Shown piece after piece: positions 5,108 through 30,167 of a stretch of DNA of 64,000 nt. The notes beneath the pieces were generated by a model. The model saw nothing but the letters and a program-made list of their open reading frames with translations. It was not told where the DNA came from and did not search any database. The position numbers and the translations under genes were made by a program. The stretch is from Clostridia bacterium (GTDB lineage Bacteria > Bacillota > Clostridia > CAKSNL01 > HGM11501): NCBI GenBank assembly GCA_045588365.1, contig JAZNEB010000024.1:48963-112962 (forward strand), given 5' to 3'. Each line of letters starts with the position of its first letter. Position 1 is the stretch's first letter.

Positions 5108-6402
5108 ATTTCTGCCGCTGCAAAGCCAAGAGGCGAGATTTTTATCTCGTCTTTTTCTGTTTTTGTTCCTCTTTCAATTATCATCTTTTTTATTCCGTCT
5201 GTCTTTATTGTTTTTTCTTCTTTCCCGAAGTTTATGGAAACTAAAATCCTTTTCTCTCCTTTAATTCTCTCAAAGGCAAGTAATTCCCCTTTATTTTCCT
5301 CTCTTAAAATAAGCTCTCCGTCATATAAAAGAGGATAGTTCATTCTCATTTTATTAAGTTCTTTCATTAAGGCAAGACGGCTCTGTCCCTCCACACTCAT
5401 GGCGTTGGACCAGTCTATTCCTATGTTCTTACCTGAGAATCTGTTAGAGAACATATTCTGTGTTCCCCTATCCAAAATTTCATTTCCGTTCCATATAAAG
5501 GGAACTCCGTCAACGGTGTATATAAGAAAATAGCATAAGTCTGTTATTTCGTGAGGATAAATCAAATCCATACGTCTTTCCTTGTGGTCGCTTGCCAGAT
5601 CGTGGCTTTCAAAAAGGTTAAGATGCTTATAACCAACTGAGGTAGTGAATTCCAGTGTCTTTTTAAAGGCCTCTGCCTTATCCTCCGAGTCCATAAAGGC
5701 GTGCCAGCCCATTCCTCCAAAAGCAGTACATCTGTAAGAAAGGTCGAAAACCCCGCTATTTACAAATTCGGGAGCTATTCCCTCATCAATCATAACAAGA
5801 TTTTCATTTATCTTCCTGCATCTTTTAATGCCCTCTTCCCAGAAATCCAGAGGTATGGCATCTCCCACATCGCACCTGAAGCCGTCAACCTTGTATTCTT
5901 TTAAGAAAAGCTCCATATTGGAGTAAAGATATTCCCTGACTTCATTATTTTCATAGTTTATTCTTGCGAAAGGCCAGTTGGCACCTACTAATGGCTTTCC
6001 GTCCTCATCCTGCTTCACCCAATCGGGATGCTCCTTTAAGAAAACCGCATTGACTCCGCAGTGAAGATATACAAGGTCGAACATTACCTTAAGTCCTTCC
6101 CTGTGTGCCTCGCATACAAAATCCAAAAGGTCTGAATTATCACCGTATTCCTCATCCACATTGAAATAATCCGCCATTTTATAGGGGTTTTTGGGGTTGT
6201 CTGCACCCGATGCAATTTGCCTGGGACTCCAGGTTGCTCTGTTTAAGTCAGCATCTGCCATCCATACGGGGCAAAGATAAATCCAGTTTACTCCAAGCTC
6301 CTTTATGTGATGGAGCATCTTTTTTGCAGCGTTAAGTGTTCCGTCAGGAGTTAATGCTCTTAGGGATATCTGATAAAGTATCCTATTTTCCACAAAAATC
6401 AC
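5104..6402 (-). CDS. Glycoside hydrolase family 13 (alpha-amylase family) enzyme, cytoplasmic
   Basis: 432 aa; GH13 conserved regions (DLVYLHCG, GFRCDVGD, EGI..., FESHD); no signal peptide. Confidence 0.8.
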   Translation of the reverse strand: MIFVENRILYQISLRALTPDGTLNAAKKMLHHIKELGVNWIYLCPVWMADADLNRATWSPRQIASGADNPKNPYKMADYFNVDEEYGDNSDLLDFVCEAHREGLKVMFDLVYLHCGVNAVFLKEHPDWVKQDEDGKPLVGANWPFARINYENNEVREYLYSNMELFLKEYKVDGFRCDVGDAIPLDFWEEGIKRCRKINENLVMIDEGIAPEFVNSGVFDLSYRCTAFGGMGWHAFMDSEDKAEAFKKTLEFTTSVGYKHLNLFESHDLASDHKERRMDLIYPHEITDLCYFLIYTVDGVPFIWNGNEILDRGTQNMFSNRFSGKNIGIDWSNAMSVEGQSRLALMKELNKMRMNYPLLYDGELILREENKGELLAFERIKGEKRILVSINFGKEEKTIKTDGIKKMIIERGTKTEKDEIKISPLGFAAAEI

Positions 6403-21192: not shown

Positions 21193-22194
21193 TTATTTTG
21201 TAGTTACCGCTATTACGCCGTCATTTATTTCCGCCTTTGCATTTTCTCCGAAAAGAAGCTTGAATATATCCAGACCAACAAAGGTTCTGTCCTCAATTAT
21301 TTCGGGAGCTTTTTCGCTTTCACTAAAAATCTTCTTTCCGATTATTAAGGACTTTTCTGCTTCGCCTTTTTTAAGTGTTACTTCTCTTTCTTCCCCATTC
21401 CAGGAAATTTCAAAGCCGAGACCTTCTGCCAAAGAACGGAGAGGAATAAGTTCTTCCTTTAAGGAAAAGGACACTTCCATTTTTTCGCCGTCAAGTAAAA
21501 TACCTTCAATTTCTCCTGCCTTTCTTTCAGCCAAGGTGAGAACTGCTATTTTTTCTGCAGGGACATGAGCGGGAAGGCTCATTCCAACGGCAGAAGCAAA
21601 TACCAAAATCTCGGAGCCCTTTGTAATGTCCATGGCTCTTAACATAATTCTTATTCTGTGTGCAGTAACAGGTGTCAAATCTTCATATACCACACGGTAG
21701 GAGCCGTCTTCGGATAGAATAACCCCGTCCTTATTTTCGGACACTACCATATAGATGGGAGCAGAAATGGAATTTTCAGTATTTACCAAAATATAAAATG
21801 CATAGTTCTGGGGCGGCAGGCTCATTGTGGTCATTGTTGAAGTTACCGCACTTATCATATCTCCCACTTTGATTTCTGCAGGGTTTAAGTTGTAATCCGC
21901 AATATATGTATTTTGGTCAATGTTTAATCTTAAGTTACCGTCATTTACCATTATGTAATCTTCTGTAATTTCCGATACGACTCCGTGCTGCATCATCTTT
22001 TCAGGCATAACAAACTCCTTGGCGTCGGCTTCTTCAAAGTCTACAGCCTCTTCAATGGGCATTGTTGAATAAGGGTCATCCTCTATGCCAATGAGCATTG
22101 TTGCGTAGGGGTCCATTTCTTCATTGGCGGAGGCATACATACCAAAAGCAGTAAATACCATTAAAACCGCCAGCAATAAACTTGTCTTTTTCAT
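21193..22194 (-). CDS. Secreted protein with C-terminal copper-amine-oxidase N-terminal-like (stalk) domain
   Basis: Start ATG 22194 (AAGGAG RBS), signal peptide MKKTSLLLAVLMVFTAFGMYASA; C-terminal Cu_amine_oxidN1-like segment (IPLRSLAEGLGFEISWNGEEREVTL). Confidence 0.55.
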   Translation of the reverse strand: MKKTSLLLAVLMVFTAFGMYASANEEMDPYATMLIGIEDDPYSTMPIEEAVDFEEADAKEFVMPEKMMQHGVVSEITEDYIMVNDGNLRLNIDQNTYIADYNLNPAEIKVGDMISAVTSTMTTMSLPPQNYAFYILVNTENSISAPIYMVVSENKDGVILSEDGSYRVVYEDLTPVTAHRIRIMLRAMDITKGSEILVFASAVGMSLPAHVPAEKIAVLTLAERKAGEIEGILLDGEKMEVSFSLKEELIPLRSLAEGLGFEISWNGEEREVTLKKGEAEKSLIIGKKIFSESEKAPEIIEDRTFVGLDIFKLLFGENAKAEINDGVIAVTTK

Positions 22195-22291
22195 AAATTT
22201 ATTCTCCTTTTTTGTTTCTGTATATAATACAATTAAAAAAAGCAAAAGGTTGCATAAAAATTAAAATATTTTAAGAAAGGTATAAATTTTC

Positions 22292-22320
22292 TTGACAATA
22301 GGGTTTTTCCTCCTTATAAT
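22292..22320 (+). promoter_or_regulatory. Sigma-A promoter for argF (TTGACA-17-TATAAT)
   Basis: consensus hexamers, ~50 nt upstream of ATG. Confidence 0.6.
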
Positions 22321-22368
22321 ATACAAATATACTATCATTTCGTATATTTATACAAAAGGAGCAATATT

Positions 22369-23364
22369 ATGAAAAAAATAAACTTAAAGGGAAAAAGCTT
22401 TTTAAAGCTTTTGGATTTTTCCCCGGAAGAAATAAATTACCTTATAGATTTAGCCGCTGATTTTAAGGCTAAAAAGAAAAAGGGAATTCCCCACAGAATA
22501 TTAAAGGGTAAGAACATCGCCTTGATTTTTGAAAAAACCAGCACAAGAACCAGATGTGCCTTTGAGGTTGCCGCATCTGACCTTGGAATGAGTTCCACTT
22601 ACCTTGACCCCACAAGCTCTCAGCTTGGCAAAAAGGAAAGTATTCCTGATACCGCAAGAGTTATAGGCAGAATGTATGACGGCATAGAATACCGTGGCTT
22701 CGGTCAGGAGATTGTGGAAAAGCTGGCTTCTTTTGCGGGCGTTCCCGTGTGGAACGGACTTACAAACGAGTTCCACCCCACTCAGATTTTAGCTGATTTC
22801 CTTACCATAAAGGAGCATTTCGGTTCACTTTCGGGCAAAAAATTGGTTTATATGGGCGATGCCAGATACAATATGGGCAACTCTTTAATGGTTGGCTGTG
22901 CCAAGATGGGTATGAATTTCGTGGCGTGCACCAGCAAAAAGTATTTCCCTGACGAGACTTTAATAAATACCTGCAGGGAAATTGCCGAAAAAACAGGCGC
23001 AACCTTATCCTTTAACGAAGACCCCATAGAGGCAACAAAAGATGCTGATGTAATTTATACAGACGTGTGGGTTTCCATGGGCGAGCCTGAAGAAGTGTGG
23101 AAAGAAAGAATAGAGGACTTATCTCCCTATCGTGTTACAAAAGAAATTATGGATAACGCCGGTGAAAAGTGCCGCTTTATGCATTGTCTTCCTGCTTTCC
23201 ACAACCTGGATACCAAAATCAGCAAAGAAATTTACGATAAATTCGGCATTGATTCAATGGAAGTTACCGAAGAGGTTTTTGAAAGCGAAAAATCCATTGT
23301 ATTTGACGAAGCTGAAAACAGAATGCACACAATTAAGGCAGTTATGGCAGCTACATTAAAGTAA
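22369..23364 (+). CDS. argF: Ornithine carbamoyltransferase
   Basis: 331 aa; STRTR carbamoyl-phosphate motif, HCLP motif. Confidence 0.9.
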
Positions 23365-23412
23365 AATTTATTAAAAAAGCTTCCTCTTATGGAGTGTACT
23401 CTTAAGGACAGT

Positions 23413-23448
23413 AAACGGAGCAGTGAATTTCACTGCTCCGTTTCGCTA
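23413..23448 (+). terminator. Terminator hairpin after argF (cggagcagtg-aattt-cactgctccg)
   Basis: 10-bp stem; weak T tract. Confidence 0.5.
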
Positions 23449-23924
23449 TTATAAAAACAATCTTTTTCCCATCTTATCACATTTGTATCTATGTATTCCC
23501 ATATCTTTTGATAGTCTTTTTCACCGCGAATTATGTGGTCGTGATATGACCTTTGCCATATAGAATTACCTATTTCTTTTGCGACCATTGTTTTGAATGA
23601 ACGAACTATGGTTTCTATGTTCTTTGTAGGGGACGATGCCCTCATCGTCCCGTTAAGAAATATAATCAAATGAATATGATTTGGCATTATTACATATTTA
23701 TCAACTGTTACATTTTCATATTTTATGTTTATATTATTGATATATCTGTCACATATTAAACCGATTTCAGACAAATTATTTTGCGGGACGATGTGGGCAT
23801 CGTCCCCTACGATTTTAGACAACAATTGCTTTCTGTCTTTGACGCATATTGTAATAAAATATGCTCCCGGTGTTGAATAATCGTACCCTTTCAATCTTGC
23901 TGGTTTTCGTTTTGGTAAAGTCAT
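23430..23924 (-). CDS. IS200/IS605-type Y1 (HUH) transposase-like protein, RAYT-like (COG1943)
   Basis: 164 aa; HUH motif PNHIHLIIF, catalytic Tyr region WQRSYHDHIIR; start overlaps XRE stop (ATGA). Confidence 0.75.
   Translation of the reverse strand: MTLPKRKPARLKGYDYSTPGAYFITICVKDRKQLLSKIVGDDAHIVPQNNLSEIGLICDRYINNINIKYENVTVDKYVIMPNHIHLIIFLNGTMRASSPTKNIETIVRSFKTMVAKEIGNSIWQRSYHDHIIRGEKDYQKIWEYIDTNVIRWEKDCFYNSETEQ
23626..23652 (+). repeat. REP-like GTAG-headed GC-rich palindrome inside transposase ORF (copy B)
   Basis: GTAG-GGGACGATG-CCCT-CATCGTCCC-G; encodes GTMRASSP in-frame on minus strand. Confidence 0.7.
23784..23810 (-). repeat. REP-like GTAG-headed GC-rich palindrome inside transposase ORF (copy A, inverted orientation)
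   Basis: minus strand GTAG-GGGACGATG-CCCA-CATCGTCCC-G; encodes GDDAHIVP in a different frame from copy B. Confidence 0.7.
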
Positions 23925-24154
23925 AATATTTCCTCTAATTTTAAAACAAAGATACTCATTTTAATATCAAGAGCATTACAAATTCTATATAATGTTTCTA
24001 AAGTAGGTTTGCGCTCCCCTCTTTCTATGGCGCTCAGATGACTTCTGCCTATGTCAGCTAATCCACTTAACACTTCTTGTGAAATGCCTTTTTGCTGTCT
24101 GAAAAAAGCAACAGTTTTACCCACTTTAATAGAATCTAGTGTGGCTATATACAT
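23921..24154 (-). CDS. XRE-family HTH transcriptional regulator (77 aa)
   Basis: HTH_XRE (ISQEVLSGLADIGRSHLSAIERGE); translationally coupled to downstream transposase gene. Confidence 0.75.
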   Translation of the reverse strand: MYIATLDSIKVGKTVAFFRQQKGISQEVLSGLADIGRSHLSAIERGERKPTLETLYRICNALDIKMSIFVLKLEEIL

Positions 24155-24194
24155 ATTCTCACCTCAAGAATAGTATATGTCATTTCAAAAGAAC

Positions 24195-24250
24195 GTTTGA
24201 ACACATATGTTGACAATCGAACACTTATGTGTTATAATTTGATTGTCAAA
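24195..24250. promoter_or_regulatory. Divergent promoter region with sigma-A promoter (TTGACA-17-TATAAT, 24210-24238) and overlapping palindromic operator-like sites
   Basis: AACACATATGTT (24200-24211), ACACTTATGTGT (24220-24231), IR TTGACAATC/GATTGTCAA (24210-24218 / 24242-24250). Confidence 0.5.
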
Positions 24251-24272
24251 TTAAAAATGGAGGTAGAACAAA

Positions 24273-25061
24273 ATGAAAAAAGGATTACAGGGGTTAATTT
24301 CAGGTGTGTTGATTGGTGCAATGATGACAAGTGGGATGGTATTTGCAAAGCAAGCATCAGAAACAATTAATGTTATTTATGATAACATAAAAATTTTGAT
24401 TGACGGCAAAGAGTATCAACCGACAGATGCAAATGGCAATGTAGTTGAGCCGTTCATTTATAACGGAACTACATATCTTCCTGTAAGAGCAATAGCAACT
24501 GCCTTTGATAAAGAAGTTGATTGGGAAGCGCAGACAAGCACCGTTACATTAGGCAGTAAAAATTATGATTGGTTAGACCAGATGGGATATGTTGATTATG
24601 AATATAGTGCTATAGGAAATTCATTTTCTGCTTTGCCGGAGAACACAAAAATGTCGGATGATACGAAATTTAATAGAGGAATTATGTTTGAACTTTATGA
24701 TTACTTAGGAAATACAGGGGGTACGACGGAAAATAAAGATGGTTCATTTGGATGTAATGAAAGTATATCATATTTACTCAATGGTCAATATAAGTCCTTT
24801 CGCGGAACAATATCTCATAAAGAAAGTGGAAATACAAGAGTTGGAAATTCAGTAATAAAAATTTATGGCGATGGAAAGTTGCTATACACTTCTCCCGCAG
24901 TGTCATATGGAATGAAGTCAACAAATTTTGATATTTCGGTTGAAAGTGTTAAATTATTAAAAATTGATGTAGAATTTTTGAACACCATCGGAACAACAGC
25001 TGTATCAAATACAAAGAAGTCATTTCCCTGTATTGCTGATGCAAGATTATGTAAAAAATAA
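24273..25061 (+). CDS. Secreted protein: copper-amine-oxidase N-terminal-like domain + NPCBM-like carbohydrate-binding domain
   Basis: 262 aa; signal peptide; segment NGTTYLPVRAIATAFDKEVDW typical of Cu_amine_oxidN1; C-terminal NPCBM/NEW2-like. Confidence 0.5.
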   Translation: MKKGLQGLISGVLIGAMMTSGMVFAKQASETINVIYDNIKILIDGKEYQPTDANGNVVEPFIYNGTTYLPVRAIATAFDKEVDWEAQTSTVTLGSKNYDWLDQMGYVDYEYSAIGNSFSALPENTKMSDDTKFNRGIMFELYDYLGNTGGTTENKDGSFGCNESISYLLNGQYKSFRGTISHKESGNTRVGNSVIKIYGDGKLLYTSPAVSYGMKSTNFDISVESVKLLKIDVEFLNTIGTTAVSNTKKSFPCIADARLCKK

Positions 25062-25164
25062 TGTCCGGGACTGTAACAAGCAGGGAAAATGTATATCATT
25101 TTCCGAGATATTTTAGAATATCCTAAGACCTTAAAATGGGCGATTCGTGAATCTCCCCTACGAT

Positions 25165-25203
25165 AAAAGGCTGAACGAAATCAATCGTTCAGCCTTTCAA
25201 AAT
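25165..25203 (-). terminator. Terminator hairpin (aggctgaacga-loop-tcgttcagcct) downstream of relQ-like gene
   Basis: 11-bp stem; T tract on minus-strand side. Confidence 0.5.
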
Positions 25204-25226
25204 TACTGTCCTTAACAGTACACCTC

Positions 25227-25934
25227 TTATGAGGAAGCTTTTTTATCATATACACATTCTCTCAGGTGGTCCATGGTTTTGTCAAGCTTTGCGCTCATCT
25301 TGGCACAAAGAAGCAAATCCTCGGACATTTCCTTTGTAAATTCCACGTCTTTTTTATATTTAAGCTGATGCTCTAATGCAGCCCAGGAGTCCATGGCAAT
25401 GGTACGAAGCTGAATTTCAACCTTCATATATCTTTTTTCATCAATTAAGAAAATGGGCACGGAAACAATAAGGTGCAGACTTCTGTAGCCGTTTGGCTTC
25501 GGCTTTTTTATATAGTCCTTTTTCTTTATAAGGGTAATGTCATCCTGGCTTAAAAGTGCCGATGCAATCTTATATACATCCTCAGTAAAGGTGCATATAA
25601 CTCTGACTCCCGCCACGTCATTTAAGTTTTCTTCAATGGACGGAAGAGATATATCAAACCCGTTTTTGGAAAGCTTTGTCCTTATACTTTCGGGATTTTT
25701 AAGTCTCGATTTTATACTGTTTATGGGATTTCTGTCATACCTTAAGGAAAACTGTTCATTTAATACATTAAGCTTCGTTTCAATTTCCATAAGAGCGCAC
25801 TTATAATACGCCATAAGTCTGTTATAGCTTTCCAGGTATTCCCTCAGCTTTTCTCCCGCATCGGTTTCCCTGAAAAAGGAAACTATCATATCCTGCTGTC
25901 TTTTATCTCCAAGCTGTATTGTTTCAGACATCAA
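25227..25934 (-). CDS. Small alarmone synthetase (RelQ/RelP-type GTP pyrophosphokinase)
   Basis: 235 aa; RelA/SpoT synthetase domain (GVRVICTF, RSLHLIV) without hydrolase or regulatory domains. Confidence 0.8.
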   Translation of the reverse strand: MMSETIQLGDKRQQDMIVSFFRETDAGEKLREYLESYNRLMAYYKCALMEIETKLNVLNEQFSLRYDRNPINSIKSRLKNPESIRTKLSKNGFDISLPSIEENLNDVAGVRVICTFTEDVYKIASALLSQDDITLIKKKDYIKKPKPNGYRSLHLIVSVPIFLIDEKRYMKVEIQLRTIAMDSWAALEHQLKYKKDVEFTKEMSEDLLLCAKMSAKLDKTMDHLRECVYDKKASS

Positions 25935-26006
25935 AACACCTCCCTTATATAAATATCATAATATAAATGAAGTAAATAGTCAAGGTTACTTATGTTAATT
26001 AAATGT

Positions 26007-27457: not shown

Positions 27458-27578
27458 AAGCGCCCCCGTATTTGTTTTTTCTTTATAATACTAAATAAAT
27501 CACTTTAAGTCAATGATTTTTGCGCCTGTTTTTTGCATAATAACAAAAACAGATGCATATTAAGCCATGAATTCAATG

Positions 27579-27607
27579 TTGATATTATATTTTCCCTATG
27601 CTATAAT
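27579..27607 (+). promoter_or_regulatory. Sigma-A promoter for czcD-like gene (TTGATA-17-TATAAT)
   Basis: hexamers at 27579-27584 and 27602-27607. Confidence 0.55.
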
Positions 27608-27641
27608 ATCCTTATATAAAAACTTTTTAAAAGGAGTAGCC

Positions 27642-28538
27642 ATGAAAACAGAAAAAAATATTCTTTTTGCATTTTTATTGAATCTCTTTTTCTCCGTATT
27701 TGAATTTGTCGGGGGAATATTTACGGGAAGCATCGCAATCATTTCCGATTCTCTTCACGATTTAGGTGATGCATTGGGTATCGGCATTTCCTATTTTCTT
27801 GAGAGAAAAAGCAAAAAACAGCCTGATGGCAAATATACCTACGGCTATATGCGCTTTTCTGTTTTGGGAAGCCTTATAACCACGTTTATTCTTCTTATCG
27901 GCTCTTTAACGGTAATCTACGCCTCTTTCTTCAGAATTATGAACCCTTCCCAAATAAATTACAAGGGTATGATTGTATTTGCCGTTATAGGCTTTTTGGT
28001 AAATTCGGGGGCGGCATTTTTCACCCACGGCGGAAAATCACTTAATCAGAAGGCTGTCCATCTCCATATGCTTGAAGATGTTCTTGGCTGGGCGGTTGTC
28101 CTTATAGGTGCATTGGTAATGAATTTTACCGATATTTCCCTTATCGATCCTTTAATGTCAATGGGCGTGGCTTTGTTCATCTTGGTTAACGCCATAAAGA
28201 ATTTAATCTGTGTCCTTGACCTTTTCTTAGAAAAAGTCCCCCACGGGATTGACGTGGAAGAAATAAAAAAACACATTTTGGAATTAGAGGGAGTAAAGGA
28301 TGTTCATCATATACACATACGAAGCATAGACGGTGAAATCAATCACGCCACCATGCACATTGTTTCAAACGAAAACCCCCATAAAATAAAGGAAGCCGTA
28401 AGAAAAGAGCTCCTTGAACACGGCATTTCTCATGTAACCATTGAGCTGGAAGAAGAAAACGAAGATTGCCACGAGCATAACTGCCATATAAATACAAGCG
28501 AGTCTCCCCATCACCATCATCACCATCATCACCATTAA
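27642..28538 (+). CDS. Cation diffusion facilitator family transporter (CzcD-like) with C-terminal poly-His tail
   Basis: ORF 27567..28538; start ATG 27642 (AGGAG RBS); 6 TM, HDxxD-type motifs (DSLHDLGD), C-terminal HHHHHHHHH. Confidence 0.85.
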   Translation: MKTEKNILFAFLLNLFFSVFEFVGGIFTGSIAIISDSLHDLGDALGIGISYFLERKSKKQPDGKYTYGYMRFSVLGSLITTFILLIGSLTVIYASFFRIMNPSQINYKGMIVFAVIGFLVNSGAAFFTHGGKSLNQKAVHLHMLEDVLGWAVVLIGALVMNFTDISLIDPLMSMGVALFILVNAIKNLICVLDLFLEKVPHGIDVEEIKKHILELEGVKDVHHIHIRSIDGEINHATMHIVSNENPHKIKEAVRKELLEHGISHVTIELEEENEDCHEHNCHINTSESPHHHHHHHHH

Positions 28539-28571
28539 AAAAATCCCACAACGGTTGTTGTGGGATTTTTT
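28537..28571. terminator. 34-bp palindromic terminator, copy 1 (A6-tcccacaac-GGTT-gttgtggga-T6 + gattt)
   Basis: 15-bp stem including A/T runs; terminates czcD (+) and the HATPase gene (-). Confidence 0.75.
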
Positions 28572-28575
28572 GATT

Positions 28576-29598
28576 TTATTCTGCCTCAGATTTTATAACG
28601 TGGTTATACATTTTAGTTACATCTTCATTCATATTAACAGGAATAAGCCGAATTTCAGGATGCTGATTTTTGTAAAGAACAAAAATTTGATGTGCAAATC
28701 CCTGTCCCATCCATTCTATCCCGTAAAAATCAAGGATAACCTCCTGAAACTTTTCAAGTCTCATAAGAACTCTCTTTGCCTGAGACCTTGATACCGGAGA
28801 AGCATCAAATATATTTTTAAGCGGTACTTTCGTTTTTGCAAAGCTGCCATCATCATCTGAATACATATCAAACACTTCTTTGCTTTTTTTATGAGAGTAA
28901 TTTGACAGCGACATAATGACCATTGTGCCATTTTGGTGATTTTCCGGAAAATTAACTACATTACTTCTGTCAAATTTATCTGCCGCAAAAATTTTATCGC
29001 TTGAGACAATGAGGAAGTAATCCATCAATTTAGAACTAAAGAAAATTCCCTCTCCTGAATGATTTTTCTTATCTGTTGTAAGCTTGCCCTTAAATAATTC
29101 GCATATAGCATCATCCAGCGATGGCAATTCAAAGTGATTTTTTATTTTCTCGAAAATTCCAACACCGTTATCACTTATAATAACTTCTGTTTTTAAGTAG
29201 TTTTTTCTGATTATAACAAAAAGCCTTTCCGCACCCGAATGGTCGATAACATTATTCACCATCTCACTAAAGCTATATTCCCAAATTTCCTTTACATTTG
29301 AAGGCAAATCTTCTATATGTTTTTTCAGGGTCTCATTATATATCTCTGTTTCACTGTTTATTTCTTGTGCTTCTTTTTGGAAACAATATTCAAATGAAGT
29401 GTCTGACAATTCATATATTCCACGCTTCACACGTTTTATTACATTATTTTCAACCAATTCATTGATATAAGTATGCACAGTGTTGCGGTTGACTAAAAAG
29501 GTTTCCGCTACAATCTGAGAGGGATTTTCAACCTTTTGATCAATTTTTTCAAGAAGATACATTATTATGCGCCTCTTCTTTTCTTCGTTAAACTTCAT
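28576..29598 (-). CDS. Fusion protein: N-terminal winged-HTH + histidine-kinase-like ATPase (HATPase_c, RsbW-like) + C-terminal STAS-like (DUF4325-like) domain
   Basis: 340 aa; wHTH segment (ETFLVNRNTVHTYINELVENNVIKRV), GHKL-like N/G boxes (VNNVIDHSG...ISDNGVGIF...HSGEGIF), C-terminal STAS-like region. Confidence 0.55.
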   Translation of the reverse strand: MKFNEEKKRRIIMYLLEKIDQKVENPSQIVAETFLVNRNTVHTYINELVENNVIKRVKRGIYELSDTSFEYCFQKEAQEINSETEIYNETLKKHIEDLPSNVKEIWEYSFSEMVNNVIDHSGAERLFVIIRKNYLKTEVIISDNGVGIFEKIKNHFELPSLDDAICELFKGKLTTDKKNHSGEGIFFSSKLMDYFLIVSSDKIFAADKFDRSNVVNFPENHQNGTMVIMSLSNYSHKKSKEVFDMYSDDDGSFAKTKVPLKNIFDASPVSRSQAKRVLMRLEKFQEVILDFYGIEWMGQGFAHQIFVLYKNQHPEIRLIPVNMNEDVTKMYNHVIKSEAE

Positions 29599-29718: not shown

Positions 29719-29751
29719 AAAAATCCCACAACAACCGTTGTGGGATTTTTT
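29718..29751. terminator. 34-bp palindromic terminator, copy 2 (A6-tcccacaac-AACC-gttgtggga-T6 + gattt), loop inverted relative to copy 1
   Basis: identical stem and flanks to 28537..28571; terminates rpsI (-). Confidence 0.75.
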
Positions 29752-29771: not shown

Positions 29772-30167
29772 TTATCTCTTTGAGAACTGGGGTGCACGAC
29801 GAGCTGCCTTTAAGCCGTACTTCTTTCTTTCCTTCATTCTGGGGTCTCTTGTTAAGAAACCTGCAGCTTTTAATGCGGGTCTGAAAGTTTCTTCTACTTT
29901 AAGAAGAGCTCTTGCTACACCATGACGGATTGCGCCTGCCTGTCCGGAAACGCCACCGCCTGAAACTGTGCAGATAACGTCAAACTTTGAAAGTGTGCTT
30001 GTTGCATTTAAAGGCTGGCGAACGATAACCTTTAATGTTTCAAGACCGAAATAATCGTCGATATCTCTGCCATTGATTGTGATTTTACCTGTGCCGGGTA
30101 CAAGTCTTACTCTGGCAACAGATTCTTTTCTTCTGCCTGTTCCGTAGAACATTGTCTTTTCTGCCAT
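29772..30167 (-). CDS. rpsI: 30S ribosomal protein S9
   Basis: 131 aa; conserved C-terminus [14 protein letters not shown]. Confidence 0.95.

Follow-up and report, generated by a model that had tools for sequence, protein, structure and literature searches.

Repetitive extragenic palindromes (REPs) that lie in frame inside the gene of a REP-associated tyrosine transposase (RAYT, or TnpAREP) were described by Quentin et al. (2018, BMC Genomics 19:475, PMC6006769) in tnpAREP genes of subclass 2.4. That paper classifies the TnpAY1 proteins, its subclass 2.4 equals RAYT group 4 of Bertels et al. (2017), and its Table S1 lists REPs of this subclass such as GTAGGGGCGACC... and GTAGGGGCGGGTT.... Here we describe two palindromes of the GTAG type, copy A and copy B, inside a RAYT-like gene in a 64-kb stretch of a Clostridia bacterium genome (contig JAZNEB010000024.1); the whole stretch is referred to as the window. 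It is likely that the palindromes are REP copies, in frame and inverted, in a RAYT/TnpAREP-type gene of the Y1 HUH group, that the gene belongs to a subclass where in-gene REPs are typical, and that the copies are kept in step with the REP class of the enzyme. The initial annotation of this DNA assumed that REPs normally flank the RAYT gene rather than sit inside it, but for this subclass in-gene REPs are the published norm, to judge from the text and legends of PMC6006769. The discovery is incremental in that sense, since the core phenomenon was published in 2018 and what is presented here is a new example plus added regularities.

The closest solved structure is that of the TnpAREP protein of the Escherichia coli REPtron (4ER8; Ton-Hoang 2012, Messing 2012), whose catalytic and GTAG-binding residues align with those of the protein studied here. 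By analogy the type of substrate would also be the same, a GTAG 5' of a GC-rich hairpin on single-stranded DNA. The E. coli protein is, on the other hand, a member of subclass 2.2, and its gene is flanked by REPs and bacterial interspersed mosaic elements (BIMEs) but contains none. The identity between the two proteins is about 21%. GTAG REPs have also been found in frame within open reading frames (ORFs) of unrelated genes, single or dimeric, where they encode short peptides whose presumed place is a loop or a linker (Di Nocera et al. 2013, PMC3733652). Those intragenic REPs are sporadic and occur in varied genes, whereas the two described here occupy family-wide sites in the REP-handling enzyme's own gene, and neither a transposase nor an IS200 gene came out of a term search of the supplementary files of that paper, including the intragenic-REP table. 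As to REPs inside RAYT genes, term searches of Nunvar 2010, Bertels 2017 and Corneloup 2021 found no relevant passage, and a further literature search in full text gave Quentin 2018 as the sole match. The pair is also similar to a REPIN (a REP doublet; Bertels & Rainey 2011), as the two REPs are inverted with GTAG at the outer ends, and doublets with the same types of REP are dispersed in related genomes. It differs from a REPIN in that the spacer is 131 nt of essential coding sequence, where a REPIN has a short one without coding function, and in that nothing indicates that the pair moves as a unit.

Two GTAG hairpins in a RAYT-like gene

The positions of the palindromes and of the gene are given in Table 1. 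Copy B reads GTAGGGGACGATGCCCTCATCGTCCCG on the plus strand and copy A GTAGGGGACGATGCCCACATCGTCCCG on the minus strand, and their layout is GTAG-GGGACGATG...CATCGTCCC, where the foot of the stem is GGG/CCC, three G-C pairs. The codons of copy A are GTA GGG GAC GAT GCC CAC ATC GTC CCG, which give VGDDAHIVP, and copy B is read on the coding strand as C GGG ACG ATG AGG GCA TCG TCC CCT AC, which gives GTMRASSPT. Sequence and folding agree with the initial annotation on two 27-nt GTAG elements, their positions, strands, 9-bp stems and 4-nt loops, and on their placement inside the RAYT-like ORF. Translation of the coding strand likewise returned the two peptides named there, GDDAHIVP and GTMRASSP, from opposite orientations and different frames.

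Both elements fit the definition of a REP of the GTAG superfamily, a GC-rich palindrome of 20-40 nt with a 5' GTAG, and they lie in a window with a GC content of 39.6%. With DNA parameters the two hairpins have minimum free energies between -10.2 and -10.7 kcal/mol, with z values of -4.2 to -5.3 relative to shuffles. Copies A and B were the sole matches in the window when up to 3 mismatches were allowed, and the number of palindrome matches in 100 dinucleotide-preserving shuffles was 0. When the scan of the window was relaxed to any GC-rich hairpin after a GT[AG]G, it again gave nothing beyond these two copies.

Sequence and predicted fold support the view that the host gene encodes a RAYT/TnpAREP-like Y1 HUH enzyme with 4ER8 as its best solved relative. 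The protein matches Pfam PF01797 (Y1_Tnp) with 29.1 bits against a cut-off of 23, and the match spans positions 7-120 of the 121 in that profile. With a profile made from 60 homologs, 4ER8 was matched at E=1.5e-12, as compared to about 1e-4 for the IS200/IS605 transposases, including ISDra2 TnpA. The model of the 164-aa protein made with AlphaFold2 (AF2) has a pLDDT (predicted local distance difference test) of 91.5, and its top Foldseek match is again 4ER8, with probability 1.0 to 4ER8 as well as to ISDra2 and IS608 TnpA. It has the IS200-like fold of the Y1 HUH superfamily, with the HUH motif and one presumed catalytic tyrosine on a helix near the C-terminus. The RAYT-like identity proposed in the initial annotation is therefore borne out by the Y1_Tnp match and by 4ER8 being the best match in both sequence and fold.

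The residues that would be needed for catalysis and GTAG binding are also in place. Y144 aligns to Y115 of the E. coli TnpAREP and N148 to N119, and W123, Q124, D129, H130 and R133 align to its GTAG-contact residues W94, Q95, E100, H101 and R104. In the alignment of 60 sequences H83, H85 and Q124 are invariant, and Y144, N148 and R133 are each at least 90% conserved; the same level is reached by the N-terminal residues R6, K7, R10, L11, Y16, G20, Y22 and F23. The Y-x3-N-P signature of class 2 reads Y144-IDT-N148 here, and the next residue is V in place of the P found in many homologs and in the consensus of the hidden Markov model (HMM). The protein ends 20 aa past Y144, without a C-terminal extension. 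In the AF2 model the residues of copy A are located at the tip of a β-hairpin (36-51) after strand β1, that is in the β1/αA loop, and those of copy B in a loop modelled with low confidence (91-100, pLDDT about 66), which joins the HUH strand to the helix that follows it.

Table 1. Location of the two REP copies, the gene that carries them and the adjoining gene in the window
Feature	Position	Strand	Description or basis
REP copy A	23784..23810	(-)	GTAG and 9-bp stem with 4-nt loop CCCA; GTAG on coding strand; encodes V39-P47
REP copy B	23626..23652	(+)	GTAG and 9-bp stem with 4-nt loop CCCT; GTAG on template strand; encodes G92-T100
Inter-REP interval, 131 nt	23653..23783	(-)	Codes for aa 48-91, including helix 53-68, strand 72-79 and the HUH strand
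RAYT / TnpAREP-like Y1 HUH gene, 164 aa	23430..23924	(-)	Pfam, NCBIfam (under its cut-off) and 4ER8 match
HUH motif codons H83-I84-H85	23670..23678	(-)	Alignment of 60 sequences; aligns to 4ER8 HUH
Codon of presumed catalytic tyrosine Y144, motif Y-x3-N148	23493..23495	(-)	Alignment to 4ER8
HTH_3 (XRE-type) gene, 77 aa	23921..24154	(-)	Pfam; upstream of the RAYT gene, overlaps its start by 4 nt (ATGA)

Hairpins and peptides in homologous genes

The comparison at the DNA level was made with 80 loci from species-representative genomes, mostly metagenome-assembled genomes (MAGs) of Clostridia, where the encoded proteins have 41-84% aa identity and 78 of the genes are full-length. GTAG hairpins are present at both sites in 69 of the 78 full-length genes, site A being occupied in 70 and site B in 76. 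In the 69 genes the hairpin at site A has its GTAG on the coding strand, at about nt 105-135 of the gene, the hairpin at site B has its GTAG on the template strand and ends at about nt 275-340, and the HUH codons fall between the two. The stems themselves vary, with 45 distinct sequences among the homologs. The A and B stems of the same gene are identical in 39 genes, and in 21 of them the loop is identical too; where the two differ, each stays (nearly) self-complementary, as for GGGGCGATG versus GGACCGATG in locus L022. The REPs can be divided into the architecture classes 9/4 CGATG, 9/4 with a conserved G.A mismatch, 8/3, 8/4 'cacg' and 7/8 GGGAGGG, and these classes follow the clades of a protein tree in which both REP-coded segments had been masked.

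Conservation by codon position was compared in 12 genes of the CGATG class, with 52-84% aa identity. Third codon positions were conserved to 100% in the stem of copy A and to 98.6% in that of copy B, as compared to 61% over the remainder of the gene. One stem change recurs in these genes, the compensated pair GAC..GTC to GGC..GCC, and single uncompensated stem changes were seen in L001 and L002. This comparison of sequences supports maintenance at the level of the DNA hairpin and not of the peptide, because the third positions of the stems are near-invariant, stem changes are usually compensatory, and the stems differ between lineages while the hairpin and the GTAG persist. The initial annotation had made the same claim of DNA-level conservation, and it stands with third positions in the stems conserved to 99-100%, the GTAG kept and the stem sequences diverse.

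It is hardly credible that selection on the peptides produced the palindromes as a side effect, or that they arose by chance. That both segments are translated is the sole point in favour of such an origin, and the peptides differ wholly between lineages in which the hairpin and the GTAG persist. The synonymous positions of the stems are essentially invariant, and the expectation from chance is 0. Selection at the protein level and chance origin were both rejected on the shuffles, the hairpins of the homologs and the third-codon conservation.

The stable 9-bp GC stems would also form in the transcript, where RNA stems are stronger than the values from DNA parameters, and extragenic REPs are known as mRNA stabilisers (background in PMC3733652). 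The hairpins could then act in the mRNA, by translation pauses that aid folding or by protection from RNase, and the likeness to REPs would be incidental. We find this improbable, as it fails to explain why both copies, opposite in orientation as they are, have strictly kept the GTAG/CTAC, why the element is identical to dispersed extragenic REPs, and why the stem class covaries with the enzyme clade. Nor did Rfam give any known RNA family at the locus, in a scan of positions 22000-26000 with E<=1.

Inverted repeats of 26-27 nt that bracket the HUH-coding segment could also be the ends of a programmed DNA switch, where the RAYT or recombination inverts or excises the 185-bp module from REP to REP, which would turn the gene off or create 'double-foot' REPs. 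Among 200 loci no inverted or precisely deleted A-B interval was found, and we regard such a switch as very improbable. One opposite-strand tblastn match, in L005, was considered as an inversion and rejected, because it is an artefact of the palindromes themselves.

In some REP classes one position of the stem is conserved as a non-Watson-Crick pair, for instance in GGGACGGCG tcct CGACGTCCC, and it is the same in both in-gene copies. Loci with such a conserved irregularity are L019, L006/L007, L020, L032, L048, L014, L038 and L057. It recalls the irregularities in the E. coli stems that are important for REP recognition. The gene at 10001-10582 of L064 is chimeric, with a REP of the 8/4 'cacg' class at site A (GGGCGATT) and one of the 9/4 mismatch class at site B (GGGACGGCG), which suggests that one in-gene REP has been replaced and that the pair has not gradually drifted together.

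At the protein level the family is large, with 7382 homologs at E<=1e-5 and 22,332 representatives at 50% identity and E<=1e-3. The 120 closest homologs (75-100% identity) keep both segments, and the variation is found at the residues coded by the hairpin loops, which are H/Y/R/L/G in A and R/K/W/M in B. Across 150 of the 50%-identity representatives the A and B peptides are wholly different, yet they change jointly: the pairs are VGDDAHIVP+GTMRASSPT, VGDAALGVP+GTPKAASPT, VGADIIRP+GRMISAPT, VGAIINRP+GRLIIAPT, VGRDAHIPP+GGMKASRPT and VGEGLAPP+GGASPSPT. One or both segments are missing in some of these representatives, in which the catalytic motifs are intact, and in the alignment with the E. 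coli TnpAREP a gap of 8 aa falls precisely where site B lies. The alignment thus answers a question raised in the initial annotation, in that both peptides are lineage-variable insertions. In the homologs P0136, P0153, P0191, P0208 and P0215 the REP-coded peptide units are tandemly expanded at site A or B, for example as (IVGDAPP)n or (GRLIIAPT...)n, and these expansions resemble the 'short repeats' noted for subclass 2.4. They suggest that the sites are prone to local duplication.

The likeness to subclass 2.4, as this is presented in the text and legends of PMC6006769, concerns both the REPs and the enzyme. The REPs of the subclass (GTAGGGGCG..., GTAGGGGCGA.../GTAGGGGCGG...) have the GTAG and the GGG/CCC stem foot found here, and they too lie within the coding sequence with the frame unbroken. 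The proteins are class-2 Y1 HUH enzymes with Y-x3-N, W/Q/R GTAG contacts and the conserved N-terminal motif, and they have no C-terminal extension. They have a variable insertion in the β3/αC loop after the HUH strand, judged to be peripheral to the DNA-binding site, and in some members short repeats lengthen this loop; copy B has the corresponding place here, in a region whose length varies among the homologs. Four features of the present family do not appear in that text and its legends: there is a further site upstream, in the β1/αA loop; A and B form a fixed inverted pair with the HUH codons between them; the two copies evolve in concert, mostly by compensated changes; and the REP classes agree with the clades of the protein.

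Copies outside the gene and other features of the window

The exact element GTAGGGGACGATG-N4-CATCGTCCC is present in at least 122 copies, in at least 120 stretches of metagenome contigs, and 118 of the 122 listed lie outside RAYT-like ORFs. These 118 are found in at least 67 distinct flank contexts, often beside other GTAG hairpins as inverted doublets. The open stretch around the metagenome copies has a median length of 123 aa as compared to 327 aa at random positions, which suggests that most of them are extragenic. In the 80 genome loci there are 94 GTAG hairpins outside RAYT genes in 1.1 Mb, as compared to 124 inside, in 52 kb; those outside often form inverted doublets, and GTAG REP copies flank the gene at about 12 of the 80 related RAYT loci. 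That the GTAG palindromes are REPs, as the initial annotation supposed, is supported by finding the identical element in this many non-RAYT contexts of the metagenomes. The dispersed copies expected from it are present in metagenomes, by the contexts among the matches listed, but the window has no further copy.

In metagenome loci such as L183, L090, L093 and L190 the stem of this REP, where the loop is CTTG or CTCG, is found in a longer conserved context, …ttgcaaatgattt[REP]gc…gggccttgcc…. Of the flank clusters one comprises 32 members, and the motif recurs in several smaller ones; this may be a composite repeat of larger size, or the repeated sampling of a single locus. Another arrangement is seen at 3900-4380 of L040, a Synergistaceae MAG, where tandem units of about 136 bp each contain a GTAG REP (GTAGGGGCGGCTTGTAGCCGCCC). 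The 20-kb locus of L040 has 17 GTAG hairpins, and its local RAYT homolog is without an in-gene hairpin by the criteria used.

The RAYT gene is probably co-transcribed with the HTH_3 (helix-turn-helix) gene that overlaps its start. A similar HTH gene adjoins a RAYT paralogue in only 1 of the 80 loci, L007 (8580-9433). It is 83% identical in nt to the HTH gene of the window, and is thus conserved while the downstream RAYT paralogue has diverged. The HTH_3 gene was for this reason rejected as a conserved partner. At the other end of the RAYT gene a hairpin, GGAGCAGTG-AATTT-CACTGCTCC at 23417-23439, overlaps the stop codon. It sits between the RAYT gene and a convergent ORF, 22369..23364 (+), which is ornithine carbamoyltransferase-like, and it is probably a shared terminator.

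Two inverted copies of another hairpin (stem TCCCACAAC/GTTGTGGGA) are found at 28544-28565 and 29724-29745, each flanked by A6 and T6, and they look like bidirectional terminators. They bracket a single ORF of 340 aa, 28576..29598 (-), whose neighbours are an ORF of 323 aa with a His-rich tail, 27567..28538 (+), and a ribosomal protein S9-like ORF of 131 aa, 29772..30167 (-). The 340-aa ORF may be an inserted gene cassette.

Origin and significance of the pair

When the palindromes are read as in-frame REP copies that stay in step with the enzyme, the 8-9 residues they encode are tolerated passengers in peripheral elements of the protein, since the segments are absent from some homologs and from the E. 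coli TnpAREP. What is kept is the DNA, a GTAG with a GC-rich hairpin, whose stem varies by lineage in line with the clade of the protein and is usually the same at both sites of a gene. The enzyme would recognise the GTAG and the hairpin on single-stranded DNA, like the E. coli TnpAREP. In an ancestor of the clade, REPs were probably inserted where the gene encodes two loops that tolerate them. Since then they may have been held to the cognate REP class by selection for a hairpin that can fold and be recognised, by RAYT-dependent replacement or conversion from dispersed REPs, or by both. The chimeric gene of L064 is a hint of such replacement.

Several points weigh against this reading or limit it. 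The placement in subclass 2.4 is a probable one, as judged by the features listed above. The score for the NCBIfam model NF047646 (REP_Tyr_transpos) is 62.9 bits, under the cut-off of 80 bits, which points to divergence from the reference RAYTs behind that model. There is no other copy of this REP, or any other GTAG hairpin, elsewhere in the window, and no REPs flank this gene in the window as in a REPtron, so a dispersed population and a flanking REPtron are not shown for this genome. REPs outside the gene match the stem of the local RAYT in 9 of 82 cases, which is only a modest excess over the 3.1 +/- 1.6 expected. In this test single loci contained several REP classes, and several loci had more than one RAYT-like gene, so it does not decide whether the in-gene copies are the 'master copy' of the others, an idea taken up below. 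Finally, two fixed sites, a fixed orientation and compensatory changes exceed what is predicted for a neutral passenger, and a pattern this regular implies that the term 'tolerated passenger' may understate a function.

A function of this kind would be that the pair is a putative cis-element of the enzyme. The RAYT would bind or nick its own hairpins, which would be accessible on the non-template strand in the case of copy A and, for copy B, on the strand that is the template in transcription or in lagging-strand synthesis, and the outcome would be autoregulation, or protected REPIN-like master copies that seed the dispersed REPs. We regard this as possible but rather unlikely. It agrees with the sites and orientation being fixed in 69 of the 78 genes, with the GTAG kept at both copies, with the compensatory stem changes and the conserved mismatch that both copies share in some classes, and with the REP class tracking the protein clade. 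The dispersed inverted doublets also pair 'A-type' and 'B-type' loops as the gene does, for example at 5253/5300 in L064 and 11529/11575 in L001, and the tandem expansions exactly at sites A and B suggest local breakage and rejoining of the DNA. The catalytic motifs are, however, intact in homologs without one or both hairpins, the outside REPs match their own locus weakly, and conversion alone could yield concerted evolution with no function needed.

To our knowledge, the spread of REPs and their matching to RAYTs are unsettled questions, and activity of a RAYT on REPs in vivo has not been directly shown. With the enzyme and two copies of its presumed substrate within 500 bp, the gene is a compact system for RAYT-REP recognition and co-evolution, in which two copies are under clear constraint at the DNA level and change together with the enzyme clade. 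Translated REPs make up many of the 'low-complexity' peptide segments of these proteins that are short and GC-rich, and protein phylogenies should consequently be built with such segments masked. Tentatively, and with more doubt than confidence, we also suggest that a large, mainly clostridial clade of subclass-2.4-like RAYTs permanently carries, in its own gene, a functional REPIN-like inverted pair of its cognate REPs that brackets the HUH segment, either as the protected master copy that seeds the dispersed REPs or as an autoregulatory or self-targeting site. If this is true, the specificity of the enzyme and the sequence of its substrate would be inherited, and would co-evolve, as one physical unit.

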